Shown one piece after another: positions 11,140 through 49,614 of a stretch of 53,450 nucleotides of DNA (its first letter is position 1; each line of letters begins with the position of its first letter). The position numbers were made by a program, and so were the translations under genes. Source of the stretch: Deltaproteobacteria bacterium (GTDB lineage Bacteria; Desulfobacterota; BSN033; UBA1163); NCBI GenBank assembly GCA_037441725.1, contig JBBIRT010000002.1, forward strand, positions 2,111 to 55,560, given 5' to 3'. Below the pieces are notes generated by a model. That model was not told the origin of the DNA. It was given only the letters and a program-made list of their open reading frames with translations, and did not search any database.

Positions 11140-12492
11140 ATGAAAACAATGAAACCTTTTATATTTATAATCATCTTAGCCATTCTTTTTTTCCCCACCC
11201 TATGCTCTTCACAGGAGAAGTCTGGTCCTGATTTAAAAATCATAGTAGATACGGTCTGGGTTCTGATTACTGCGGCGTTGGTCTTTTTTATGAATTTAGG
11301 ATTTGCTGCGGTAGAATCTGGTCTTTGCCGAGCAAAAAATACCGTAAATATCCTATCGAAAAATGTAATCGTCTTTTGTGCCACCAGCCTTGCCTTCTGG
11401 GCGGTTGGATTTGGCCTTATGTTTGGGGATGGAAACCCCTTCATAGGATTAAAAGGCCTTTTTCTCCTTGGGGTTGATAACAGTCCTGCATCAGGGGATG
11501 CTTATCACGGAATCTTTTCCTCTCTTAACTGGACAGGGATTCCTCTCTTTGCTAAATTCTTTTTTCAACTGGTCTTTGCTGGGACGGCTGCGACAATTGT
11601 CTCGGGGGCGGTTGCAGAGAGAATTAAGTATTTCTCATTTTTTTTCTTTTCCTTCTTGATGGGAGCAATCATCTATCCGATTCCAGGGCATTGGATTTGG
11701 GGAGGGGGATGGTTGTCCCAATTGGGTTTTAAAGACTTTGCAGGTTCAACAGTTGTTCACAGTATTGGTGGATGGTCGGCCCTTGCCGGGGCCTACCTTC
11801 TTGGACCACGAATTGGAAGATATGGATCCGATGGGAGGGTAAACCCCATACCCGGTCATAACCTTAGCCTGGCTACCATTGGAGCCTTTGTCCTATGGCT
11901 AGGATGGTTTGGATTCAATGGCGGAAGCACTATGGCTGCTGATCCTCAATCGATCTCACTTATCATTTTAAACACCAACATGGCGGCAGCTGCTGGTGGA
12001 TTGGCTGCAACCTTCACCTCCTACTTCGCCATAGGTAAACCAGACTTGAGTATGCTCCTTAACGGGCTTCTTGCAGGTCTGGTGGGAATTACGGCCGGCG
12101 CTGATGGAGCAACTGTTTTGGGATCGATCGTGATAGGATTTATTGCTGGCATCTTAGTCGTCTACAGCGTCATCTTTTTCGATCGGGTTAGGATTGATGA
12201 CCCTGTGGGTGCTATTTCTGTCCATCTCGTTAATGGAATATGGGGAACCTTTGCCGTAGGTCTCTTCAATCAGGAAGGGGGTCTTTTATATGGCGGAGGG
12301 CTGAAACAGCTCTTGATCCAGATGGTAGGAATCCTTGCCGTTGCCGTCTTCAGCTTGATCTCCAATTTTATTCTATGGAAAATTGTTCAGGGTGTTATGG
12401 GCTTGAGGGTCTCTGAAGAAGAGGAAGTTCAAGGTCTCGATATTGGCGAACATGGGATGGAAGCCTATCCAGACTTTTCATTAAAAGCCTAA
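11140..12492 (+). CDS. amt: Ammonium transporter (Amt family) with N-terminal signal sequence
   Basis: 450 aa. Typical Amt motifs ([35 protein letters not shown]) and RBS AAGGAGG. Confidence 0.93.
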
Positions 12493-12529
12493 CCCCCTCC
12501 TAACCTCCCCTTAATTGAAGGGGAGATAG

Positions 12530-12901
<372 letters not shown>

Positions 12902-12923
12902 ATTCCAATTCCCACCTTTAATT

Positions 12924-12958
12924 TGTTTGTTTCCAAACAAACTGTTTAAAAACAAACA
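12924..12958. promoter_or_regulatory. Two adjacent TGT-N10-ACA motifs (NifA-type UAS candidates) overlapping an 8-bp perfect palindrome GTTTGTTTccAAACAAAC
   Basis: TGT(12924-26)-N10-ACA(12937-39) and TGT(12943-45)-N10-ACA(12956-58), about 100-135 bp upstream of the sigma-54 promoter at 13060. Confidence 0.35.
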
Positions 12959-13059
12959 GAAAGATCCATTATTTAATCAAATAACCCTCTTTTTATTGGG
13001 TTTCCAACCTCTTAATAATTATAATAAATTATAATTAAATCCATTCTCCTCCCACCAGA

Positions 13060-13075
13060 TGGCATAAGGATTGCT
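13060..13075 (+). promoter_or_regulatory. Sigma-54 (-24/-12) promoter TGGCATAAGGATTGCT
   Basis: Near-consensus GG/GC elements at the canonical register. Predicted +1 is about nt 13086, only 2 nt before the ATG at 13088. Confidence 0.7.
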
Positions 13076-13087
13076 CTTAAATGGGCC

Positions 13088-13807
13088 ATGAAAGTTTTAA
13101 TTCTCAAACACGTAGAAATAGAAGGTCCAGGATTAATAGAAGTCTGTTTGAAAAAAGGAAAGATCCCTTACGAGATCCTTGCACTCAACTCCAGTATTTC
13201 TTTACCAAAACTTGATGCTTTCACTCATCTTGTCATCCTGGGTGGTCCCATGAATGTTTATGAAGAAGACCTCTATCCGTTTCTTAAAAAGGAGGACCTC
13301 TTCATCAAAGAGGCTCTGCAAAGAGGGAAATCGATTTTGGGGATCTGTCTGGGAGCCCAGCTGATCGCCAAAGCACTTGGTGCCAAGGTCTTTCAAGCCC
13401 CTATAAAAGAAATTGGCTGGTATAAGGTTTCTTTGACCCCATCCGGCCTTAAGGATCCCATTTTCACCAATCTTCCACAGAGCTTTATGGTATTTCAGTG
13501 GCATGAGGATACATTTGAAATTCCAAAAGGGGCAATCCTACTGGCTACCTCAACCTCCATCCCTCACCAAGCTTTCCGATATGGAGAACATGCCTATGGC
13601 CTACAATTTCATCTCGAGGTAACCGAAGAGATGATTCATAAATGGATGGAAGTTTATAATGGGGAATTGGATCAGAGTAAAAATCCTCATTCCTCAAAAG
13701 CACAAATCCTGATTGAAACTCAAAAGAATATCAATACCTACACTGGAAGAGGGCTAAAATTCTTAAAAAAATTTTTAAGATCGAGCGATGAACCACTGAC
13801 CCTTTGA
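13088..13807 (+). CDS. Stand-alone class I glutamine amidotransferase (GATase1, GuaA-like)
   Basis: 239 aa. Nucleophile elbow GICLGAQLIA and His-x-Glu (LQFHLEV). No synthase domain attached. Confidence 0.85.
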   Translation: MKVLILKHVEIEGPGLIEVCLKKGKIPYEILALNSSISLPKLDAFTHLVILGGPMNVYEEDLYPFLKKEDLFIKEALQRGKSILGICLGAQLIAKALGAKVFQAPIKEIGWYKVSLTPSGLKDPIFTNLPQSFMVFQWHEDTFEIPKGAILLATSTSIPHQAFRYGEHAYGLQFHLEVTEEMIHKWMEVYNGELDQSKNPHSSKAQILIETQKNINTYTGRGLKFLKKFLRSSDEPLTL

Positions 13808-13839
13808 ATTCTTGTACCTCTTTAATAAGGAGGAGTGAA

Positions 13840-15066
13840 ATGAAGGTAGACACCGGAGATACAGCGTGGATTTTCATCTCATCGGCCTTGGTGATGTTGA
13901 TGACCCCAGGGTTAGCCCTTTTCTATGGAGGGATGGTAAGGTCTAAAAATGTATTAGGAACAATCATGCAAAGCTTTATTGCTCTTGGGGTCATCACCAT
14001 TCAATGGGTTCTTTATGGATATAGTCTGGCTTTCGGCCCTGACATCGGACACGTAATCGGAGGTCTCAATTGGATTGGTCTCAGGGGCGTGGGGCTCGAA
14101 CCTTTCCCTGATTATTCTGCAACCGTACCCCATCAGGCCTTTATGATCTTTCAGATGATGTTTGCGGTAATTACCCCTGCTCTGATCACCGGGGCCATAG
14201 CGGAAAGATTTAAATTTAAAACCTATCTTGTCTTTCTCATCCTATGGGCCACTTTTGTCTACGACCCTCTGGCACACTGGGTCTGGGGAGTTGGGGGTTG
14301 GATCAGAAATCTTGGAGCCCTGGATTTTGCAGGAGGATTGGTTGTCCATGTCAGCTCAGGGGTGGCTGCATTGGCAGCCGCCTTAACGGTGGGAAAGAGG
14401 AAAGGTTATGGAGATGAACCGATGCCCCCCCACAATTTAACCATGACCCTTTTGGGTGCGGCCCTCCTCTGGTTCGGTTGGTTTGGATTTAATGGGGGAA
14501 GTGCAGTGGCCTCGGGTGGTCTTGCAACTAATGCCTTTGTGGTAACACATATCTCTACCGCTTCAGCAGCCCTCTCGTGGATGATGGTTGAATGGGCCTA
14601 TCGCGGGAATCCTACAGTTCTCGGGGCAGCATCAGGGGCAGTGGCTGGATTGGTTGCAATCACTCCTGCCTCAGGTTTTGTAGGACCTGTCTCCGCCATT
14701 CTCATTGGACTTGCTGCAGGTGTAGCCTGTTATTTTGCCATCAACCTAAAGAATAGACTGGGATATGACGATTCCCTCGATGTCGTTGGCGTACACGGAG
14801 TGGGCGGTACCTGGGGAGCACTGGCCACTGGCCTCTTTGCATCTAAGGCAATCAATCCTTCTGGGAATGATGGTCTATTTTTTGGCAATCTATCTCTGGT
14901 CGGAATTCAGGCCCTCAGTGTTATTTCTGCATGGATCTACTCTTTCACGGTCACTCTAATCATTTTAAAGATTCTTGATCTGACCATGGGATTGAGGGTC
15001 AGCGAGGAACATGAAATCAGTGGGCTCGATATTAGCCAGCATGGAGAAGCCGGTTACTCATTTTAA
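13840..15066 (+). CDS. amt: Ammonium transporter (Amt family), second copy
   Basis: ATG 13840 is preceded by AAGGAGG, whereas the ORF-track start 13804 lacks an RBS. Motifs [30 protein letters not shown]. Confidence 0.93.
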   Translation: MKVDTGDTAWIFISSALVMLMTPGLALFYGGMVRSKNVLGTIMQSFIALGVITIQWVLYGYSLAFGPDIGHVIGGLNWIGLRGVGLEPFPDYSATVPHQAFMIFQMMFAVITPALITGAIAERFKFKTYLVFLILWATFVYDPLAHWVWGVGGWIRNLGALDFAGGLVVHVSSGVAALAAALTVGKRKGYGDEPMPPHNLTMTLLGAALLWFGWFGFNGGSAVASGGLATNAFVVTHISTASAALSWMMVEWAYRGNPTVLGAASGAVAGLVAITPASGFVGPVSAILIGLAAGVACYFAINLKNRLGYDDSLDVVGVHGVGGTWGALATGLFASKAINPSGNDGLFFGNLSLVGIQALSVISAWIYSFTVTLIILKILDLTMGLRVSEEHEISGLDISQHGEAGYSF

Positions 15067-42040: not shown

Positions 42041-42054
42041 TTGACTTAAGTCAA
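42041..42054. promoter_or_regulatory. FNR/FixK/DNR-type box TTGACTTAAGTCAA (TTGA-N6-TCAA)
   Basis: Perfect 14-bp palindrome. Its centre is 29.5 nt upstream of a consensus TATAAT (42077-82), which is class II (-41.5) geometry for the 42147 gene. Confidence 0.6.
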
Positions 42055-42146
42055 AGAAAATCTAAGGGTAATGGGATATAATAAAAATAAATGAATCAAT
42101 GGAGGAAGAATCCTCAAATCAAATGAAAAGGGAGGTTTGAACAACA

Positions 42147-42590
42147 ATGACCCACGAATACGCTGGAAAGTATGCTTTGAAACATCCACCCGGTACAAGG
42201 CCGAATGAAGGGATTGCCAAGGTGGTCAGAGAAAGGTCTTCGGGCGGCGAACTCGCTTGTGGAATGGCTGAAAGGATTGCAAAAGAGCTTAATGTTAGTA
42301 TCTCGGAGGTGGGGCTGACCGCCGATTTACTGGAGATAAAAATCAAAAAATGTCAGCTTGGCCTCTTTGGCTGGGGAAATAAACCAAACCATGGCAAGGA
42401 CATCCATCTGGCCGATTCTGTCCCCTTTGAGATGAAGCGTGCCCTTGATGGAGTTACCGAAAAGGGCAGGGTAACCTGTGCTTCGGTTTGGGCGATTGCT
42501 GATCGTCTTGGCATAGAGCGAAAGGTGGTTTCTACTGCCTGTGAAACTTTAGGATTAAAGATCATAAGGTGCCAGCTCGGTACATTCTAA
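42147..42590 (+). CDS. Hypothetical protein with an internal tandem duplication, each half ending in C-QLG-x-F
   Basis: 147 aa. ACGMAERIAKELNVSISEVGLTADLLEIKIKKCQLGLF aligns with CASVWAIADRLGIERKVVSTACETLGLKIIRCQLGTF. Strong RBS GGGAGG. Confidence 0.7.
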   Translation: MTHEYAGKYALKHPPGTRPNEGIAKVVRERSSGGELACGMAERIAKELNVSISEVGLTADLLEIKIKKCQLGLFGWGNKPNHGKDIHLADSVPFEMKRALDGVTEKGRVTCASVWAIADRLGIERKVVSTACETLGLKIIRCQLGTF

Positions 42591-42661
42591 GCCGAATTTC
42601 TCTGCCCCTATTTAAATTTATCTGTCAGTCGTTCGTATATGACGAGACCTCTGGAAAAAAT

Positions 42662-43705
42662 TTAACGTTTGGGTAACCCAATTGCACTGAGATAGAATAA
42701 TAGCCTTAGTAAAAAATTATTTCTTGAGATTGATTGAGTAATCCAGATCATTCTTCTGACCGTTTTCCTTGAGACCTTCATATCGCCAACTGGCTTATAA
42801 CTTCTTCTCCATATATTCCTTAGGGTAAACATAGCCAATCCAATAGCCCACAGACAGAACTTACGTATCCCTGTCTCTTTTTCAGGGAGAAGGAGTGTAT
42901 AGGTCAGGCCGTTTTTAAGATGTTCATAAGTAATGGCTATGAATTGAGCCACTCCTTTTTTAAATGAATCACAGTCGTATATTTGAGATAGATCTTTTAA
43001 ATAAAATCCACATCTCTCAAAAATATCCCTCGGTAACCAGCAGACCCCACGATCGAAATCCTTCCAAAGATCCTTTAAAATGTTTGTCATCTGCAGACCC
43101 TGACCAAAAGAGACTGCCAGCTTGTTGAGGGTCTCTCTTTTTTGTGCTATCTCCGATGAGTATTCACAAAAAAGATCCGTTAAAAATTCTCCAACAACTC
43201 CAGCTACGTAATAACAGTAATCGTTTAATTCGAATAAGTCCTTAAGGCCTTGATGTTTCTTCCGCAGCTCAAATGCCTCCATCCCTGTACACATCAGCGT
43301 GATGGACCTTTTGAGACCTTCATACTCTCTTGGGTTAAGCTCACGGGTAATACGAATAATCCTTTCGATGTTTTGGATGAGGTTTTTCTCAGGCAAAACA
43401 GTAAGGTTTGAGAGCAGGGGAGCCAACTCGGCTTTAAGAGCTTCAGGGGATGAATGGTCAGAAATGACTTCAACCAATCTGTTGAAGAATTTTCTCTTTT
43501 GATCTATCGTAAATGTATTCTCATCCTCGATCGTATCGGCAATTCTAAATAATAAATAGGCATTTGCGACAACGTTCCGAAGAGTCCCTGGTAACTGAGG
43601 GATGGTAAAGGCGAATGAGCGAGAAACCCCATTAAGTAACTGATGCTGAAAATCAATATCATTGAGTTCTTTATCAGAAGCCAATACCTCTCCCCTAATC
43701 TTCAT
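42662..43705 (-). CDS. Squalene/phytoene synthase family enzyme, eukaryote-type squalene synthase-like
   Basis: First Asp-rich motif YLLFRIADTIEDE (cf. LRALDTVEDD) and second region GQGLQMTNILKDLWKD (cf. LQKTNIIRDYLED). Confidence 0.8.
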   Translation of the reverse strand: MKIRGEVLASDKELNDIDFQHQLLNGVSRSFAFTIPQLPGTLRNVVANAYLLFRIADTIEDENTFTIDQKRKFFNRLVEVISDHSSPEALKAELAPLLSNLTVLPEKNLIQNIERIIRITRELNPREYEGLKRSITLMCTGMEAFELRKKHQGLKDLFELNDYCYYVAGVVGEFLTDLFCEYSSEIAQKRETLNKLAVSFGQGLQMTNILKDLWKDFDRGVCWLPRDIFERCGFYLKDLSQIYDCDSFKKGVAQFIAITYEHLKNGLTYTLLLPEKETGIRKFCLWAIGLAMFTLRNIWRRSYKPVGDMKVSRKTVRRMIWITQSISRNNFLLRLLFYLSAIGLPKR

Positions 43706-43724
43706 CAGTCATCGAGCTAACTTT

Positions 43725-44852
43725 TTATGAAACTTCCTCAGTAGGTTGATAGAGACAGTCAGGCTCTGCAGCAAGGTAATCGCCTGTGACAGCAAATGCA
43801 CGAGCCCTGGAGCCTCCACAGACTTTTCGAAATTCACATCGACCACATTTCCCTTTTAAGGCGTCTGGATTCCGTAAGGCTTTGAAGATTGGAGATTCCT
43901 GATATATCGAAACAATTGAATCCTGAGGGAACCTCCCTGCCTCTATAGGAAGAAAACCACTTGGGAAAATCTGCCCGGTATGGCTGATAAACATACAGCC
44001 ATTCCCATCATTGAGACCAAGGGGACCTCTCTGTATGGGTATAGAGGGGCCCGTTAATTTATTAAATTCTGTTTGGGGATTCCCACCCCTTTGAAGAACA
44101 AATCTCCTGTAATGGGGGGCCTCTGTAGTCTTAATGCTGTAATTCTTTGTCTTCGTATGTTGCCAAAGGAAGCCAAAGATCTCTTCATATTGAGCAGGTT
44201 CAATCCTTTCCTCACTCATCCCTCGACCAATGGGAATGAGAAAGAATACCGACCACAGAGTGATAGGGAAGGAAGAAATAAATTCGGCAATCTCATTAAT
44301 CTGACTAACATTTCGCCTTGAGATAGTGGTATTAATCTGAATCGGAAGACCGATCTGATAAGCACTTTTCACCAAATCTATTGTTTTATCGAAACTTCCA
44401 GAAATTCCACGAATCCCATCGTGGGTCAATGCATCCGCTCCATCCAGTGAAAAAGCAATCCGTTTAAGACCAACCTTTTTAAGCTGTTGAAGGGCTTGGT
44501 CATGAAGGAGAGGGGTTACTGAAGGGGTCATAGCTACCGATAGCCCTGCCTGAGTGGCCCAACGAACAATATCAAAGACATCATCTCTTTTCATTGGGTC
44601 CCCACCGGTCAGGATCAAAGTTGGCTTAAGAGGAAATTGGTTCAGTTGATTAATCAACTCATGACAAAGAGCTCCTTCGATCTCCTCAGGATGGCGATCG
44701 GGTTGGGCTGAGGCCCGGCAGTGCTTGCAAATAAGATCGCAAGCCTGGGTGATCTCCCAAAATACAATAAAAGGACTGTGACGAAAGTCAGATCTATTGT
44801 ATTCTGAAGAGGCCATTGATTTGAGACGCTCATTTGGTTTGGTTCCCTTCAT
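43725..44852 (-). CDS. Radical SAM enzyme with C-terminal SPASM-type auxiliary-cluster domain
   Basis: CDLICKHCRA (CxxxCxxC), GGDPM glycine-rich motif, C-terminal CGRCEFRKVCGGSRARA. RBS AAGGAG. Confidence 0.85.
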   Translation of the reverse strand: MKGTKPNERLKSMASSEYNRSDFRHSPFIVFWEITQACDLICKHCRASAQPDRHPEEIEGALCHELINQLNQFPLKPTLILTGGDPMKRDDVFDIVRWATQAGLSVAMTPSVTPLLHDQALQQLKKVGLKRIAFSLDGADALTHDGIRGISGSFDKTIDLVKSAYQIGLPIQINTTISRRNVSQINEIAEFISSFPITLWSVFFLIPIGRGMSEERIEPAQYEEIFGFLWQHTKTKNYSIKTTEAPHYRRFVLQRGGNPQTEFNKLTGPSIPIQRGPLGLNDGNGCMFISHTGQIFPSGFLPIEAGRFPQDSIVSIYQESPIFKALRNPDALKGKCGRCEFRKVCGGSRARAFAVTGDYLAAEPDCLYQPTEEVS

Positions 44853-44954
44853 GGGAAACGCACTCCTTAACTTCTTTCCTCCTCTTTAAAAACCCATTGA
44901 CCCATTTTAATCATGACTCCCCTCTTATAAAAGATATTATTTTCACGATTAAAT

Positions 44955-44978
44955 TTCCTTGACTTACGTCAAGGAAAT
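44955..44978. promoter_or_regulatory. Extended FNR/FixK/DNR-type box TTTCCTTGAC-TTAC-GTCAAGGAAA
   Basis: Perfect 10-bp arms with core TTGA-N6-TCAA at 44959-72. The centre is 29.5 nt from a minus-strand TATCTT, giving class II geometry for the radical SAM operon. Confidence 0.55.
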
Positions 44979-45064
44979 AATAGGGAATCAAGGCCATCAT
45001 TGATATAAAGATGGACAACCTTTCATTGGAATAAATGATATGATGCCAAAGAAAAAATAAAATT

Positions 45065-45078
45065 TTGATTTAAGTCAA
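45065..45078. promoter_or_regulatory. FNR/FixK/DNR-type box TTGATTTAAGTCAA
   Basis: TTGA-N6-TCAA core. The centre is 29.5 nt upstream of TATGTT (45101-06) on the + strand, giving class II geometry for the RIC-like operon. Confidence 0.55.
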
Positions 45079-45179
45079 GGATATTCCTTTAAAGGTTAGT
45101 TATGTTTAGTATAAAGGGAGGAATAAGTCTTTAGAAAATGATCTATACGCTGATGAGGAGTCATTTCTAAGAGTAGAGG

Positions 45180-46070
45180 GTGATTGGAATGGAACAAAGC
45201 AGGGCGGAAGCTGTTTATTCATTTATAAAAAGATTGAAAAACGATGAATATGAAAGAGGGAGAGAAATGGATCAATATCTCAACACCCCCATTAAGGAGC
45301 TGATTACAAAATTCCCTAAGGTGGGGGAGATCTTGGAGGAATATGAAATTGGTTGTGTCCCTTGTCATGTAGGGTCCTGTCTGCTAAAAGATATTATAGA
45401 AGTTCATAATTTGTCAGAGAAGGAAGAAAAGGAGGTGATGGTTAGGATTTCAAAAATAATCGATCCGGATAAGGTGATTTCTATCCCGGTTGTGGAAAGG
45501 AAGTCCAAGATTAAGTCCAGGGAGATCCACTATTCTCCTCCAATGAGGAAGTTAGTAGACGAACACGCCTTGATTAAAAGATGGATTGCTTTAATTCCAG
45601 AAATTCTTAAGCATTTGGAGGTAGAATTAGAGGGAGGCCTATGGGTGATTTATGATGGCGCTGATTTCATCCGTTCGTATGCAGATCGATTCCACCATGC
45701 CAAAGAAGAGGATATCCTTTTTGAATATTTCGATAGAAACTTGGACATCATCAAAACCATGCTTGAAGATCATGAAAAAGGACGGACTCATGTAAAAGCC
45801 TTGATCGAATCTGCGGATAAGAAGGACATCATGGGTATTTCTCAACACCTTTTAGCCTATCATGATCTTCTCAGCGAACATATCAAGAAAGAGGATGAGA
45901 TTCTTTACCCCTGGATGGATAGAAACCTTTCGATGACTCAAGTGGGTCAGCTTTATTCCAGGTTTAACGAAGTGGACGAGAGAAGTGATATAACTGAGAA
46001 ATACAAGAAATTCATTCTTAATTTAGAAGAAAAATATCAAAGAAAGGAGATAAAAAATGAGAGCATTTGA
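45180..46070 (+). CDS. RIC/YtfE-like protein: CxxC (ScdA_N/DUF1858-type) domain + hemerythrin-like di-iron domain
   Basis: TPIKELITKFPKVGEILEEYEIGCVPCHVGSC, then HHE-type motifs (FHHAKEEDILFEYF, HEKGRTH, HIKKEDEILYPWM). The likely true start is ATG 45267 (RBS GAGGGAG). Confidence 0.75.
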   Translation: MIGMEQSRAEAVYSFIKRLKNDEYERGREMDQYLNTPIKELITKFPKVGEILEEYEIGCVPCHVGSCLLKDIIEVHNLSEKEEKEVMVRISKIIDPDKVISIPVVERKSKIKSREIHYSPPMRKLVDEHALIKRWIALIPEILKHLEVELEGGLWVIYDGADFIRSYADRFHHAKEEDILFEYFDRNLDIIKTMLEDHEKGRTHVKALIESADKKDIMGISQHLLAYHDLLSEHIKKEDEILYPWMDRNLSMTQVGQLYSRFNEVDERSDITEKYKKFILNLEEKYQRKEIKNESI

Positions 46071-46527
46071 AGGTTGCCCAAGTTCAAGAACGATTGATTT
46101 CAGAGAGGAAGGGACCAAAGAAGAAAGCCCCGCCGCAAAGGTGAAATCTGAACTTCGACAATGGCCAATCCAACTTCACTTGATCTCTCCGACAGCTCCT
46201 TATTATCAGGGAACGGATGTATTGTTAACGGCTGACTGTGTAGCCTATGCGATGGGAAGCTTCCATCCAGATTATTTAAAAGGAAAATCGATTGCCATTG
46301 CTTGCCCAAAGCTGGATGAGGGTCAAGAGGTCTATGTGGAAAAAATTAAATCTTGGTTTGGAGAGGCAAAGATCAATACCCTGACGGTATTGACCATGCA
46401 AGTCCCATGCTGCATGGGATTAGTCCATTTGGCCAAAGAAGCCCTGATCAATTCGAAGAGAAAGGTTCCATTGAAGTCCATTGTGGTTAGTCTACAGGGA
46501 GAGATCCTTTCAGAGGAATGGGTATAG
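46057..46527 (+). CDS. Conserved Cys-rich protein (resembles the C-terminal module of ferredoxin-domain proteins seen next to hcp/CODH genes)
   Basis: 156 aa with LRQWPIQLHL, LTADCVAYA, IACPKLDEG, MQVPCCMGL. RBS AAGGAG. 14-nt overlap with the upstream gene. Function unknown. Confidence 0.6.
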   Translation: MRAFEGCPSSRTIDFREEGTKEESPAAKVKSELRQWPIQLHLISPTAPYYQGTDVLLTADCVAYAMGSFHPDYLKGKSIAIACPKLDEGQEVYVEKIKSWFGEAKINTLTVLTMQVPCCMGLVHLAKEALINSKRKVPLKSIVVSLQGEILSEEWV

Positions 46528-46614: not shown

Positions 46615-48921
46615 ATGGCTGAACTAAAAGAAATAAACCAGAGATTAGAAGAGATTTATCAGAAGATAAAGGCTGATATTCCATGGGAACCTGTTGGACA
46701 TACCCCGATGCCCGAAACCTCTGATCTCAGGAATTGGGATAGGAGGCTTTTACAAACCTATAAACCCTGGTATGCCCCTTTCTGTGATCTTTGTTGCTTT
46801 TGTACCTACGGAAAATGTGATCTCACTGAGAATAGAAGAGGGGCTTGTGGAATCGATATAGCAACCCAGCAAGGGAGGTGGATGCTTCTCTTCTGTGTCA
46901 TGGGGGCCTCAGCACACACCTCTCATGCTGCCCATATCCTTGACGTACTGATCAAGAAGCATGGACCGGACAAGAGGATTAATTTAGGGAGTTTTGTTGA
47001 TTTAGAAGCGCCTCATATTAGAACCGTTCTGGGATTGAAACCAGAAACCCTCGGTGATTTAAGGATCGCAATTGAATACATCTACAAAGAGATTACCCAC
47101 CTGATCGACTCGACAGCATTCGGTCAGGAGGGAAATCCACTGGATTTTGAATCCAAAGCTCTTCATGCAGGAATGCTTGACCATGTTGGGATGGAAGTAG
47201 CTGACATTGCCCAGATCGTTGGCTTTAACTATCCCACTTCTATTGCGGATACGCCTCTCGTCGATCTCGGATGGGCATCCGTGGATAAGACCAAGCCCAT
47301 TATCTGTTTTGTAGGACATAATCCTGCGACTTCCACCGTTGTGGTCGATTACCTCCAGGAAAATAATCTCTACGACAGGATTGAGCTGTGTGGAATTTGC
47401 TGCACTGCCCTGGAGACCAGCAGATACACATCCAGGATGAGAGTGGTCGGTCCTTTTTCACGTCAGCTTTTCTACATAAGGAGTGGAATTGCAGATGTCA
47501 TTATCACTGATGAACAGTGCATGAGGACGGATATGGTTCAAGAGGCGACAAAGGCTGGCTCTGCCCTCATTGCTACACTCGATAAGGTGATGTATGGCCT
47601 TGAGGATGCAACAGAGAAGGCAACCGATGAAATCCTCAAGGAGATGGTGGAGAAGAAGAAACATTTCGCGATCCTTGATCCCAAAAAGGCTGCTGAGGTA
47701 GCCGTCAAGGTAGCCATCGCCATTGCTCCCCATCGGAGGAAACAATGGATCCTGGACGAGGAGGCACAGGAATTATCAAAAAGATGTAACTTGTGCGGAA
47801 TGTGTGAAACTGCTTGCCCAAATCTCTTTGAGATTGGTCAGGGGATAAGCGAGGTGGCCAAAGGGAACTATGAAGTGATCAAGGATCAATTTAACTATTG
47901 TATTGGTTGTGGAAAATGTGAGGAGGAATGTCCAAGACAGATTCCAATCCTGAAGATCATGCAGGTCGGAGCGAGTAAAGAAACCTATAAGATCAGGGCT
48001 GGCCGTGGCCCAATTATGGATACAGAGATAAGAACAGTTGGAGCCCCAATAACGCTTGGCACCATTCCCGGTGTGGTGGCACTCGTGGGATGTTCAAGCT
48101 ATCCCGATATACGGGACCTTGCTGAAATAGTAGATGAATTTGCAAGAAGAAAATATATCATCTTAGTCTCTGGCTGCACCTCCATGGCGGTTGGGATGTG
48201 GAAGGATGCCGAGGGGAAAACGATCTACGAAAAGTATCCTCCTGTTTTTGATGCTGGAGGCGTTGTGAATGTTGGGGCCTGTGTCGCAAACAGCCACATC
48301 TCTGGAGCGGCTATAAAGATTGCCAATCTATTTGGAACTTTACCCTTAAGAGGAAATTATGAAGTTATTGCAGACTATGTGCTGAATCGAGTCGGGGCAG
48401 TGGGGATCGCTTGGGGGATCTATTCCCAGAAGGCAGAAGCTATCGCATCAGGATTCAATCGATTAGGAGTGCCTGTTATTCTTGGGCCCCATTCCTCTAA
48501 GTATCGACGGCTCTACTTATCAAGGAAAGAGGAGGATGAATGGAAGGTAATGGATGCAAGGAAAAAACAGATCGTTGAAACTGAAGAGCCTTCCCCCGAG
48601 CACCTCGCCTATGTCTGTGAGACAAAGGAAAAGGTCATGGTGATGATTCCGAAGCTCTGTATTCGAAAGAATGACACTCCCCAGGGAAGGGCAATCAAGC
48701 TTAATCATTATATCTCCCTTTATAAGAGATACATGGGAGGAGGTCTCCCCGAAGACCTTCACCTCTATGTTCGGAGGGAGGCAGATATTCCGCTCGTTTA
48801 TAAGAAAGAGGTCAAGGCTTATTTTGCAGAGATAGGCTGGAAACCAAAGGAACCAGTTGGGCTTCCCACTCTTATTGGTACTTATCCAACAAAGGTCCCA
48901 GTAGAATCCGTCATTCATTAA
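46615..48921 (+). CDS. Ni-dependent CO dehydrogenase catalytic subunit, CdhA (archaeal ACDS alpha) type
   Basis: 768 aa. FCDLCCFCTYGKCDL...RGACGID, SKALHAGMLDHVGMEVADIAQ, DKTKPIICFVGHN, CGICCTA, DEQC, inserted 2x[4Fe-4S] (CNLCGMCETACP, CIGCGKCEEECPRQIPIL). Also VSGCTSMAVGMWKD, GACVANSHISGAA, LNRVGAVGIAWG, LGPHSSKYRR. All match my recollection of CdhA. Confidence 0.85.
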   Translation: MAELKEINQRLEEIYQKIKADIPWEPVGHTPMPETSDLRNWDRRLLQTYKPWYAPFCDLCCFCTYGKCDLTENRRGACGIDIATQQGRWMLLFCVMGASAHTSHAAHILDVLIKKHGPDKRINLGSFVDLEAPHIRTVLGLKPETLGDLRIAIEYIYKEITHLIDSTAFGQEGNPLDFESKALHAGMLDHVGMEVADIAQIVGFNYPTSIADTPLVDLGWASVDKTKPIICFVGHNPATSTVVVDYLQENNLYDRIELCGICCTALETSRYTSRMRVVGPFSRQLFYIRSGIADVIITDEQCMRTDMVQEATKAGSALIATLDKVMYGLEDATEKATDEILKEMVEKKKHFAILDPKKAAEVAVKVAIAIAPHRRKQWILDEEAQELSKRCNLCGMCETACPNLFEIGQGISEVAKGNYEVIKDQFNYCIGCGKCEEECPRQIPILKIMQVGASKETYKIRAGRGPIMDTEIRTVGAPITLGTIPGVVALVGCSSYPDIRDLAEIVDEFARRKYIILVSGCTSMAVGMWKDAEGKTIYEKYPPVFDAGGVVNVGACVANSHISGAAIKIANLFGTLPLRGNYEVIADYVLNRVGAVGIAWGIYSQKAEAIASGFNRLGVPVILGPHSSKYRRLYLSRKEEDEWKVMDARKKQIVETEEPSPEHLAYVCETKEKVMVMIPKLCIRKNDTPQGRAIKLNHYISLYKRYMGGGLPEDLHLYVRREADIPLVYKKEVKAYFAEIGWKPKEPVGLPTLIGTYPTKVPVESVIH

Positions 48922-49188: not shown

Positions 49189-49614
49189 ATGAGGGGAGAA
49201 GGACATCAGTTTAATCAATATAGCCAGAAGGTGATTGACCACTTTACAAATCCACGAAATGTTGGGGAGATTGAAGACGCTGATGGGATTGGAGAAGTAG
49301 GAAATCCCGTGTGTGGGGATATGATGCAGCTATTTATTAAGGTCAGGGATGGAAAGATTGCGGATGCAAAATTTAAGACCTTTGGGTGCTGTGCTGCCAT
49401 TGCCACAAGCAGTATGATGACAGAATTGATTAAAGGGAGGACCCTATCCGATCTAAAAGAGATCACCAATAAGGTAGTCACCGAAGCTCTGGATGGTCTA
49501 CCGAAAGTAAAACTTCACTGCTCGGTTTTGGCAGAGGATGCCCTAAAGGCTGCCCTAAAAGATTATTATCAGAAAAAGGGGGAGGAAGAGAATGGAGTAG
49601 AACCTTCTATTTAG
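49189..49614 (+). CDS. iscU: IscU/NifU-N-type Fe-S cluster scaffold
   Basis: 141 aa. NPRNVG, GNPVCGD, FGCCAAIATSS, LHCSVLAEDALKAA. RBS AAGGGAG. Confidence 0.9.
   Translation: MRGEGHQFNQYSQKVIDHFTNPRNVGEIEDADGIGEVGNPVCGDMMQLFIKVRDGKIADAKFKTFGCCAAIATSSMMTELIKGRTLSDLKEITNKVVTEALDGLPKVKLHCSVLAEDALKAALKDYYQKKGEEENGVEPSI

Follow-up and report, generated by a model that had tools for sequence, protein, structure and literature searches.

Boxes and genes in the window

The window analyzed here, a stretch of 53,450 nucleotides of deltaproteobacterial DNA, carries three palindromes of the form TTGAY-N4-RTCAA, which start at 42041, 44959 and 45065 and bear out a preliminary description that had reported three TTGA-N6-TCAA boxes. 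Box 1 (TTGACTTAAGTCAA, 42041-42054) is a perfect 14-bp palindrome, box 2 has the core TTGACTTACGTCAA (44959-44972), and box 3 reads TTGATTTAAGTCAA (45065-45078), each being an exact match. The core of box 2 is enclosed within a 24-bp palindrome, TTTCCTTGAC-TTAC-GTCAAGGAAA (44954-44977); this extended symmetry had been noticed earlier, with a start at 44955 that has to be moved one base upstream. The pattern TTGAYNNNNRTCAA has exactly three matches in the window against 0.57 expected from shuffles, a number reached by 2 of 100 shuffles. Likewise, a PWM trained on relatives only assigns 30.9, 24.8 and 25.1 bits to boxes 1, 2 and 3, respectively, and 9.0 to the runner-up within the window, and it ranks box 1 first genome-wide. 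In their contexts (atcaTTGAC..GTCAAagaa, ttccTTGAC..GTCAAggaa and aattTTGAT..GTCAAggat for boxes 1, 2 and 3), the boxes show the HcpR palindrome wyTTGACnnnnGTCAArw upstream of their targets.

The target of box 1 is the gene of a 147-aa tandem-Cys protein (42147..42590, + strand) that has no family match, and whose orthologues lie inside box-driven operons in two related genomes, G003 (79% identical) and G023 (76%). Box 2 precedes an operon on the - strand, the first gene of which encodes an AhbD/NirJ-like radical SAM/SPASM protein (43725..44852; TIGR04053, 448 bits, cut-off 395); the G003 orthologue (79%) also has a box directly upstream. Located 19 nt 3' of this gene is one of the squalene/phytoene-synthase family (42662..43705, - strand; SQS_PSY, 2.9e-47), which is presumably cotranscribed with it, and whose orthologue in G023 (55%; locus L057) has a perfect box of its own directly upstream.

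The first gene after box 3 encodes a RIC/YtfE-like di-iron protein with a hemerythrin domain (45180..46070, + strand) and an N-terminus that weakly matches DUF1858, or 'hybrid cluster protein-associated redox disulfide'. It is followed in the same operon by the gene of a 156-aa Cys-rich protein (46057..46527, + strand), and this order recurs in G064 and G049, where RIC-like orthologues (60-63%) precede the 156-aa gene and the box lies further upstream. The 156-aa protein has no match in Pfam or NCBIfam, and its domain is present in 47 of the 55 genomes of the bacterial family, making it the most widespread regulon member in this family; a box scoring above 18 bits was found at 27 of 30 loci with the domain (29 from other family genomes plus the window's own). 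Next comes a paralogue of the CdhA-type Ni-CO-dehydrogenase of the Prismane family (46615..48921, + strand; TIGR00314, 1027 bits, cut-off 781), which occupies the place that hcp has in other HcpR regulons. Its orthologue in G003 (87%) is also part of a box-driven operon, and a second CdhA copy in this genome (contig C17) has no box. Finally, an IscU/NifU_N scaffold gene (49189..49614, + strand) may form the end of the box 3 operon; it is preceded by a gap of 267 nt containing neither a box nor a called + strand terminator, and the IscU gene of G003 (86%) sits in another box-driven operon. Among the genes that had been placed under the boxes from the outset, cotranscription of IscU across the 267-nt gap is possible but unproven.

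Promoter geometry and distribution of the boxes

Each box is accompanied by a -10-like hexamer, namely TATAAT (42077-42082, + strand), TATCTT (44936-44931, - strand) and TATGTT (45101-45106, + strand), the start of which, when recomputed, lies exactly 29.5 nt from the center of boxes 1, 2 and 3, respectively, as first described. Transcription would accordingly be predicted to start at about 42089, 44924 and 45113. A sigma-70 -35/-10 pair was called at none of the three box promoters, and the expected -35 position reads Aagaaa (box 1), Aggaaa (box 2) and Aggata (box 3). An operator near -41.5 relative to the predicted start, a poor or absent -35 and a fixed -10, which together define a class II promoter, are thus found at all three boxes.

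The -41.5 geometry proposed for them gains support from the family at large, across which the 29.5-nt spacing between box center and -10 hexamer forms a sharp peak. In relatives (51 unique sites, read in both directions), a TAnnnT hexamer starts 29.5 nt from the center in 24 cases, compared with about 3 at a background offset; in distant genomes (79 unique sites, likewise read in both directions), it does so in 48 cases, against a background with a mean of 2.8 and a maximum of 11. Within this genome, 4 of 7 sites show the exact fit, all three window boxes among them; the remaining three either miss the exact spacing or do not fit the TAnnnT form, which we count against the HcpR reading developed below.

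These seven sites emerged from the genome-wide scan with the relatives-trained PWM, which found them at 24.8-30.9 bits, all intergenic and three of them inside the window, followed after a gap by an eighth site at 18.0 bits and by lower-ranked sites that mostly fall inside coding sequence. The four sites outside the window precede norCB, a ygbA-like gene, the gene of a small membrane protein and an HD-domain gene. NorB is a true cNOR (3o0r_B, E = 2.9e-125) whose partner is a NorC-like cytochrome c, and the ygbA-like product scores 94.5 bits (cut-off 88) against the 'nitrous oxide-stimulated promoter' YgbA family. The targets are functionally coherent in that they include norCB, the YgbA-like protein, the RIC-like hemerythrin protein, IscU and the Prismane-family CdhA. 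Canonical hcp, by which HcpR regulons are defined, is absent from the 93%-complete assembly, which likewise counts against an HcpR assignment; the assembly contains only two Prismane genes, both CdhA-type; it is one of these, the window's, that is controlled by a box instead.

Could the palindromes be chance occurrences, or a non-regulatory repeat? The preliminary description had named a random frequency genome-wide without promoter association as an outcome that would speak against the motif, and the loose pattern TTGAYN4RTCAA is indeed not enriched, with 48 occurrences in the genome against 40.9 +/- 6.4 expected from third-order Markov simulations. However, when no more than one mismatch is allowed, TTGACTTAAGTCAA shows an enrichment of about 19-fold genome-wide (8 observed, 0.42 +/- 0.76 expected from such simulations), the top sites are all intergenic, and sites are kept upstream of orthologues across genera, with the -10 spacing fixed. 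A chance origin therefore has next to no probability, being effectively refuted by the PWM ranking, the spacing in distant genomes and the enrichment of the 14-mer.

With regard to conservation, 20 of 21 related genomes have the box, with 63 sites against 15 in a reversed control. It precedes orthologues of the four targets outside the window, namely the HD protein in 7 genomes, norCB and the ygbA-like gene in 5 each, and the membrane protein in 4. Reshuffled operons with the box upstream occur in G003 and G023 and contain the genes for the 156-aa protein, CdhA, the tandem-Cys protein, the radical SAM protein, the squalene-synthase-like protein and IscU. Boxes are thus kept upstream of orthologues in many related genera, while the operon order varies. 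The relatives of the organism are Syntrophaceae/Thermodesulfobacteriota MAGs and strict anaerobes.

A candidate regulator encoded outside the window

In agreement with the earlier observation that the window, on contig C2, encodes no CRP/FNR-family regulator, the genome has only two HTH_Crp_2 matches, and these CRP/FNR paralogues lie on contigs C12 and C27. The candidate regulator is the 229-aa protein of this genome (G000) encoded at C27:7110-7799. It has CRP/FNR architecture, combining a cNMP-like sensor domain with an HTH_Crp_2 DNA-binding domain (PF13545, 67 bits at C27:7134-7352), is matched along its full length by the FtrB, Fnr and CRP models, and aligns over residues 5-220 with DNR, its best solved-structure match (3dkw, E = 4.5e-29). 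Its recognition helix, ISETLSR, follows an E--SR pattern; E, S and R are kept by all 81 homologues, and the residue before the helix E is P in 73 and S in 8 of them. The protein therefore carries the HcpR helix signature, in which R180 of CRP is replaced by Ser or Pro and E181 and R185 are kept, a change that Rodionov et al. tied to the TTGAC motif (PMC545781, PMC1274295).

The loci of its homologues (n = 80) contain 82 boxes in 595 kb, against 0 in a reversed control. In the tally of box-adjacent genes at these loci, 48 entries are the regulator gene itself, which implies a box at the promoter of many of the homologues themselves. In addition, hcp lies within 4 kb at 36 of the 80 loci and an frdX-like gene at 19, and one or the other is found beside the regulator homologue at 42. 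In G003, the orthologue (66% identical) is flanked by norCB and the ygbA-like gene, and the locus has three boxes. Since the C27 gene has no box of its own here and adjoins no target, its assignment rests on the homologues and on one relative, G003. No hcp was found near the regulator in this genome or in the six closest relatives (68-74% identity).

Alternatively, the sites may be real and the factor may act as a repressor that occludes the -35 and is released by NO, or the C12 paralogue may be the one that binds them. CRP/FNR proteins can repress, and activation is not universal among proteins named HcpR, given that HcpR2 of D. desulfuricans was proposed and modeled as an NO-labile repressor (PMC5701242). 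Moreover, the helix of the C12 paralogue (TETSIR) also keeps E and R, which counts against the C27 assignment, and none of the sites in this genome is linked to the C27 regulator. Yet promoters that have no -35 hexamer should be weak without an activator, and a spacing fixed to the base pair, as in about 60% of the 79 distant sites, is needed for contact between activator and polymerase and not for occlusion. Furthermore, HcpR2 is an Fe-S protein, whereas the C27 clade has no conserved Cys; as for C12, it has no box nearby and is set apart from the hcp-linked clade by a branch of 10 substitutions. We thus regard both variants of this alternative as unlikely.

The absence of Fe-S cysteines also bears on what the regulator might sense. 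Palindromes resembling TTGAT-N4-ATCAA at -41.5 are the classical class II arrangement of FNR, and the E--SR helix is that of E. coli FNR, so that the boxes could be read as FNR sites of an oxygen-sensing anaerobic regulon. However, neither CRP/FNR paralogue has an N- or C-terminal Cys cluster; the only Cys of the C27 protein, C9, is not conserved, several of its homologues contain no Cys, and the clade has no conserved Cys at all. In addition, the targets are NO-linked, and an anaerobiosis switch would make little sense in an organism whose relatives are strict anaerobes. FNR control is therefore hardly credible, and of the 'small anaerobic/NO-type regulon' initially proposed, the small NO-type regulon is supported, whereas the label 'anaerobic' is not, because the regulator lacks an Fe-S Cys cluster.

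DNR of Pseudomonas aeruginosa is an NO- and heme-dependent CRP/FNR activator of nir, nor and nos. A DNR/NnrR-type regulon, in which an NO-sensing DNR orthologue coordinates the nir-nor-nos genes of denitrifying respiration, would agree with DNR being the best solved-structure match of the C27 regulator, and with norCB belonging to the regulon. At the positions of H139 and H187 of DNR, presumably its heme-ligand histidines, the C27 protein has Arg and Lys in the 3dkw alignment, with Leu as the clade consensus at H187, so that neither histidine is conserved. Nor does the gene content fit well: norCB is in the regulon, but a search of the genome for Cytochrom_D1 (NirS, cd1 nitrite reductase) and for NrfA found neither, and the remaining targets are genes of detoxification and Fe-S repair rather than respiration. 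In the tree, DNR falls on a 5.6-substitution branch outside the clade of hcp-linked homologues. As regards the sites, those of DNR are FNR-like, TTGAT-N4-ATCAA (PMC1274295), and the boxes had at first been likened to them; the half-site here, TTGAC with C/T flanks rather than CTTGAT, fits the published HcpR motif better, and that assignment has to be refined. Control by a DNR orthologue is thus very unlikely.

Finally, the presence of CdhA in the regulon raises the question of whether the regulator senses CO in the manner of CooA, the heme-containing CRP/FNR protein that activates CODH operons (PMC545781). In both G000 and G003, CdhA is under box control, and heme sensors often bind both gases. 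Nevertheless, these are the only two of the genomes examined in which CdhA is box-linked, the regulon's conserved core (norCB, the ygbA-like gene and the hcp/frdX genes of homologues) is entirely NO-linked, and the CooA site, TGTCGGCnnGCCGACA (PMC545781), is unrelated to the TTGAC-N4-GTCAA boxes and is not what is found at these operators. Sensing of CO is therefore highly improbable.

Collectively, the scan, the conservation, the spacing and the C27 paralogue support the original idea of CRP/FNR-family sites that define a small NO-type regulon, controlled by a protein from outside the window. We put at roughly 0.8 the probability that the boxes are class II operators of a dimeric HcpR-type CRP/FNR activator, the C27 protein, with NO or nitrosative stress as the most likely signal, for which the NO-linked gene content is indirect support. 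The sites, their spacing and conservation and the tie between this regulator family and the motif are shown, whereas the TSS positions, the effector and activation as opposed to repression are inferred. The C27-encoded regulator, of the FNR-like-motif branch of HcpR known from deltaproteobacteria other than Desulfovibrio, would bind the three boxes as a dimer, each box being centered about 41.5 bp upstream of the predicted TSS and standing in for the missing -35 of a -10-only promoter, so that the bound regulator would recruit RNA polymerase as at other class II promoters. Sensing would proceed without an Fe-S cluster and probably through heme, by analogy with other HcpR and DNR proteins. The window boxes would then switch on the tandem-Cys gene, the radical SAM and squalene-synthase-like pair, and the RIC-like/156-aa/CdhA operon, possibly including IscU, whereas the other four sites would switch on norCB and the ygbA-like, small membrane protein and HD-domain genes.

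Meaning and comparison with known systems

In its mechanism, this would be an ordinary NO-stress regulator of a known kind; it is the genes switched on that are unusual. A tentative proposal, which we think may well turn out otherwise, is that the HcpR regulon of this uncultured Syntrophaceae-like family was rebuilt around proteins with no assigned function (the 156-aa protein, the tandem-Cys protein and the pair of TIGR04053 and squalene-synthase-like proteins), with a CdhA paralogue of the acetyl-CoA-synthase type replacing the hybrid cluster protein in at least two genera. If so, a Ni-CODH-type enzyme would have been recruited to nitrosative-stress defense, either as an NO/hydroxylamine reductase or for CO handling, and the regulon genes would represent an undescribed module of NO defense or of Fe-S/cofactor repair.

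The E. coli NsrR regulon (hmp, ytfE, ygbA and hcp-hcr) bears a striking resemblance to the present one in its RIC/YtfE-like, YgbA-like, Prismane-family and NO-removing proteins. Its regulator, however, is unrelated, an Rrf2-family Fe-S repressor that acts by repression rather than class II activation, and the NsrR motif, gATGyAT-N5-ATrCATc (PMC1274295), is unlike the boxes here. DNR shares more features, being the closest solved structure by sequence, free of a Cys cluster, and associated with an FNR-like box and nor genes as targets, but it differs in its identity of about 30%, in its unconserved H139 and H187, in its consensus (CTTGATnnnnATCAAG, FNR-like TTGAT-N4-ATCAA; PMC1274295), in the lack of nir here, as judged by a search for NirS, and in its position outside the hcp-linked clade.

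HcpR of Porphyromonas gingivalis, a heme-based NO sensor that activates hcp (PMC12750200), is likewise a Cys-less CRP/FNR sensor that responds to nitrosative stress by activating a Prismane-family enzyme. Its heme ligand, Met68, lies in the flap of the sensing domain (PMC12750200); in its own sensing domain, the C27 clade has an invariant His71 and an invariant Met124. Nevertheless, the P. gingivalis protein belongs to a distant branch and is a weak sequence relative, and its own regulon consists of hcp only. Rodionov et al. report another type of DNA motif upstream of hcp in that organism and give GTAACnnnnGTTAC for their HcpR2 branch (PMC1274295).

Judging from motif and protein sequence, the closest known system, rather than DNR or FNR, is HcpR in its FNR-like-motif form ('HcpR1'), described for Geobacter, Desulfuromonas, Desulfotalea and two cyanobacteria (PMC545781, PMC1274295). 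Its motif, wyTTGACnnnnGTCAArw or atTTGAccnnggTCAAat (PMC1274295, PMC545781), is the same as here, as is the helix signature (R180 to Ser/Pro, with E and R kept), and the distance from site to start codon, 80-126 nt in the published sets, is 99-114 nt here. Positive control was predicted for HcpR1 from sites at or overlapping the -35, and its published targets include norB (in Synechocystis), frdX-like ferredoxins and cytochromes c (PMC545781, PMC1274295). Unlike in those systems, hcp is lacking here and a CdhA-type paralogue takes its place, the regulator gene, itself without a box, lies apart from its targets, and there is strong constraint on the central 4 bp, which read TTAA or ATAA. To the known HcpR1 theme, the present regulon adds the radical-SAM/SPASM, squalene-synthase-like, tandem-Cys and 156-aa Cys-rich proteins.

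Boxes and promoters in the window

The preliminary description had claimed three boxes in the window, and TTGAYNNNNRTCAA indeed has three exact matches in the 53-kb stretch, at 42041, 44959 and 45065, where shuffled sequences would yield 0.57. The palindrome around box 2 is borne out as a 24-bp element enclosing the box (44954-44977), although it starts one base before the 44955 originally assigned. A matrix scan of the whole window detected no further site above 9 bits. Each box is accompanied by a -10-like hexamer, namely TATAAT (42077-82, + strand) for box 1, TATCTT (44936-31, - strand) for box 2 and TATGTT (45101-06, + strand) for box 3, and recomputation from the sequence with a script confirms a distance of exactly 29.5 nt between hexamer start and box centre in all three cases, as had been proposed. 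If transcription starts 7 nt past the hexamer, the box centre would lie at -41.5. A -35 hexamer is missing from all three promoters (the bases at the expected position are Aagaaa, Aggaaa and Aggata), according to a sigma-70 promoter and terminator scan whose counts stood at chance level and which was used solely for this absence.

The same spacing recurs far beyond the window. Among 51 unique sites of related genomes, analyzed in both directions, 24 TAnnnT hexamers start exactly 29.5 nt from the centre against a background of ~3 per offset, and in a distant set of 79 unique sites from 80 loci this number rises to 48 (background mean 2.8, maximum 11). These peaks support the class II (-41.5) reading and indicate that this arrangement is a conserved property of the operator type and the regulator branch. 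Within the window's own genome, 4 of 7 sites fit the spacing exactly; in the other 3, the distance differs by 1-3 nt or the hexamer is imperfect. From centre to centre (44965 to 45072), boxes 2 and 3 lie 106 bp apart, i.e., ~10 helical turns; this phasing is probably incidental, since it is not shared by the paired boxes of the related genomes G003 (spaced 76 and 132 bp) and G023 (252 bp).

Box 1 precedes the gene of the 147-aa tandem-Cys protein (42147-42590), which has no family match, and downstream of box 2 come a TIGR04053 radical-SAM/SPASM gene and, after 19 nt, one of the squalene/phytoene-synthase family. Box 3 serves a RIC/YtfE-like hemerythrin protein, a 156-aa Cys-rich protein of unassigned family (46057-46527, + strand) and a 768-aa CdhA-type Ni-CO-dehydrogenase (46615-48921, + strand; TIGR00314, 1027 bits, cut-off 781). 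The next gene, IscU, lies past a 267-nt gap in which the matrix and terminator scans found neither a box nor a called terminator, so it is a putative co-transcribed member of the box 3 unit. The RIC-like protein has no close orthologues among 40 relatives; these occur in genomes G049 and G064 only. Additionally, an 86-aa protein of G003 (locus L053, G003:C55, 7422-7679), ending in CQLxCF, corresponds to one repeat unit of the tandem-Cys protein, and its N-terminal EAVYEFIKRL resembles the N-terminal EAVYSFIKRL of the RIC-like protein encoded in the window (45180-45300). These small proteins of the regulon may have a module in common.

The regulon in the genome and its relatives

A genome-wide motif scan had been suggested as a check, and its outcome depends on how the motif is written. 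In the assembly (G000; 3.27 Mb, 234 contigs, 43.7% GC, 93% complete; window at C2:2111-55560), the loose TTGAYN4RTCAA occurs at random frequency (48 sites vs 40.9 +/- 6.4 expected from third-order Markov simulations), whereas the promoter-associated sites conform to a stricter form, TTGAC-TTAA-GTCAA flanked by C/T-rich sequence, which alone is enriched (8 sites with at most one mismatch vs 0.42 +/- 0.76 expected). When scored with a position matrix derived exclusively from other genomes' sites, the seven top-scoring sites (24.8-30.9 bits) are all intergenic and three of them are the window boxes; the next-best site scores 18.0 bits, and lower-ranked sites fall mostly within coding sequence.

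The sites outside the window lie upstream of genes for a NorC-like cytochrome c and NorB, the latter a bona fide cNOR (3o0r_B, E = 2.9e-125), of a 'nitrous oxide-stimulated promoter' YgbA-family gene, of an HD-domain protein gene and, at C27:1967, of a 135-aa membrane protein gene. This last box is ~400 nt 5' of its gene (gap region C27:1573-1966), and the equivalent gap in G003 is filled by a 67-aa Cys-rich ORF; the transcription unit may therefore begin with a small ORF that is not annotated. Neither NirS nor NrfA was found in the genome, and together with the target set this makes the regulon look like one of NO detoxification and Fe-S repair rather than denitrification. The initial proposal of a small NO-type regulon is in agreement with these seven sites, whose targets include norCB, the ygbA-like gene and the RIC-like gene.

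The box (at most one mismatch) is present in 20 of 21 related genomes, with 63 sites against 15 in a reversed control. It is found upstream of orthologues of the HD protein in G003, G007, G009, G011, G012, G013 and G017, of norCB in G001, G003, G005, G008 and G010, of the ygbA-like gene in G001, G003, G005, G016 and G019, and of the membrane protein gene in G001, G003, G005 and G010. The window's genes are themselves rearranged: in G003, an operon with two boxes encodes a NifU-like small protein, the 86-aa protein, the 156-aa protein (81%), CdhA (87%) and the tandem-Cys protein (79%), and two more boxes lie between the radical-SAM gene (79%) and a hemerythrin/DsrE-like/IscU (86%)/NifS-like operon. 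In G023, one box precedes genes for small proteins, the 156-aa protein and the tandem-Cys protein, and another precedes a squalene-synthase-like gene (55%). Sites that are kept while the operons are reshuffled mark a true regulon. The tandem-Cys gene has no box directly 5' of it in any of the 16 related genomes with an orthologue, occupies an internal position in box-driven operons of G003 and G023, and showed no box in more distant classes. Regulon content differs widely from lineage to lineage; in distant Thermodesulfobacteriota (L086, 2562-3785, and L129/L143), the same box also lies 5' of a flavodiiron-protein-like gene and of a ResB-like cytochrome c biogenesis gene.

The candidate regulator

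No more than two HTH_Crp_2 genes, on contigs C12 and C27, were recovered by a profile search of the genome, which supplies the CRP/FNR paralogues whose identification had been proposed. The C27 protein (229 aa) has a single, non-conserved Cys and the helix ISETLSR. Its best solved-structure match is DNR (3dkw, E = 4.5e-29), and the boxes might accordingly be read as a DNR regulon; however, the DNR motif CTTGATnnnnATCAAG and its nir/nor/nos targets fit the boxes and the regulon less well, and DNR H139 and H187, presumably the haem-ligand histidines, align to Arg and Lys of the C27 protein. FNR is ruled out by the lack of a Cys cluster, and CooA by its different operator.

An HcpR-type assignment is favored by the homologues. 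A scan of 185,579 species genomes yielded 80 loci, which hold 82 boxes in 595 kb against none in a reversed control and thereby link regulator family and motif. A box is present at 53 of these loci, and the regulator gene itself accounts for 48 entries in the tally of box-adjacent genes; full-length hcp (Prismane, 586 bits) occurs at 36/80 and a frdX-like NIR_SIR/ferredoxin gene at 19/80. The six closest homologues (68-74% identity) belong to Syntrophaceae/Thermodesulfobacteriota MAGs, which indicates where the organism belongs. Across 81 homologues, E190, S193 and R194 are invariant, the residue before E is Pro (73) or Ser (8), His71 (100%) and Met124 (99%) are kept, and no Cys is. HcpR is the CRP/FNR regulator of hcp and frdX, and in Desulfuromonas, Desulfotalea, Geobacter and two cyanobacteria its counterpart of CRP Arg180 is Ser or Pro, with the motif turning FNR-like (wyTTGACnnnnGTCAArw) and preceding hcp, frdX, cytochromes c and, in Synechocystis, norB; positive control was predicted for these sites (Rodionov et al.; PMC545781, PMC1274295). 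In a tree that shows nesting rather than a rigorous subfamily test, given its single distant outgroup and long DNR branch, the C27 protein nests among hcp-linked regulators, with DNR and the C12 paralogue on very long branches. The original reading as a CRP/FNR-family operator is supported, with its 'FNR/FixK/DNR-type' label narrowed to 'HcpR-type'.

In G003, the gene of a 66% orthologue of the C27 protein has norCB on one side and the ygbA-like gene on the other, and three boxes occur at this locus. In G000, no site lies 5' of the C27 regulator, the C12 paralogue or the cdhA copy on contig C17 (best <= 2.3 bits). Because the C27 regulator gene lacks its own box and is unlinked to any predicted site, the proposal that its product, rather than the C12 protein, would bind the boxes rests on the homologues and on G003. 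The gene adjoins a 2-hydroxyacyl-CoA-dehydratase-like trio (C27:3935-7079; two large subunits and a BadF/BcrA-type activator ATPase) and no NO-related gene; the regulators of the closest relatives (68-74% identity) are likewise without a neighbouring hcp. Binding would activate transcription, as suggested by promoters that lack a -35 and keep their spacing exact to the base pair. The signal would be NO, given the norCB, ygbA-like and RIC-like targets and the hcp of homologues, and because P. gingivalis HcpR has been shown to sense NO through haem (PMC12750200); His71 and Met124 are, speculatively, candidate haem ligands.

Cargo of the regulon and comparison with HcpR systems

The 156-aa domain is found in 47 of 55 genomes of the bacterial family, where it is the most widespread box-regulon member, and a box above 18 bits accompanies it at 27 of the 30 loci fetched, a set that includes the window. 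It has no match in Pfam or NCBIfam and exists in two forms, one short and the other ~265 aa long, the latter carrying a 2x[4Fe-4S] ferredoxin domain at its N-terminus; C7, C61, H70, C83, C118 and C119 are invariant. Its AlphaFold2 model, of moderate confidence (mean pLDDT 65, pTM 0.62), has an alpha/beta Rossmann-like core, for which Foldseek returned nothing from the PDB with E <= 0.001 or TM > 0.4. The two Prismane-family genes of G000 are both CdhA-type, and only the window copy, not that at C17:~12131-13849, has an HcpR-type box upstream. The 93%-complete assembly contains no canonical hcp, which holds CdhA's position in homologous regulons of other Thermodesulfobacteriota. Of the loci checked, only those of G000 and G003 have CdhA after the 156-aa gene.

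Collectively, this evidence supports the boxes as HcpR-type operators with a textbook regulatory mechanism. The unusual part is the cargo: CdhA in Hcp's place, the 156-aa domain, the tandem-Cys protein and the radical-SAM/squalene-synthase-like pair. Co-regulation with norCB, the ygbA-like gene and the RIC-like gene places these four components, including the extra CdhA, in the nitrosative-stress response, and the boxes thus offer a clean regulatory handle on otherwise unannotatable genes of an uncultured anaerobe. The FNR-like motif predicted for HcpR by comparative genomics in 2004/2005 is hereby extended to Syntrophales-type lineages, together with statistical evidence that class II geometry is conserved in this branch (48 of 79 sites, same offset). 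HcpR2 of D. desulfuricans, modelled as a repressor, is an Fe-S protein (PMC5701242), whereas the C27 clade has no conserved Cys. Although the defining hcp is absent from G000, where the box-controlled Prismane-family gene is of the CdhA type, every sequence-level feature of the FNR-like-motif branch of HcpR is found there.
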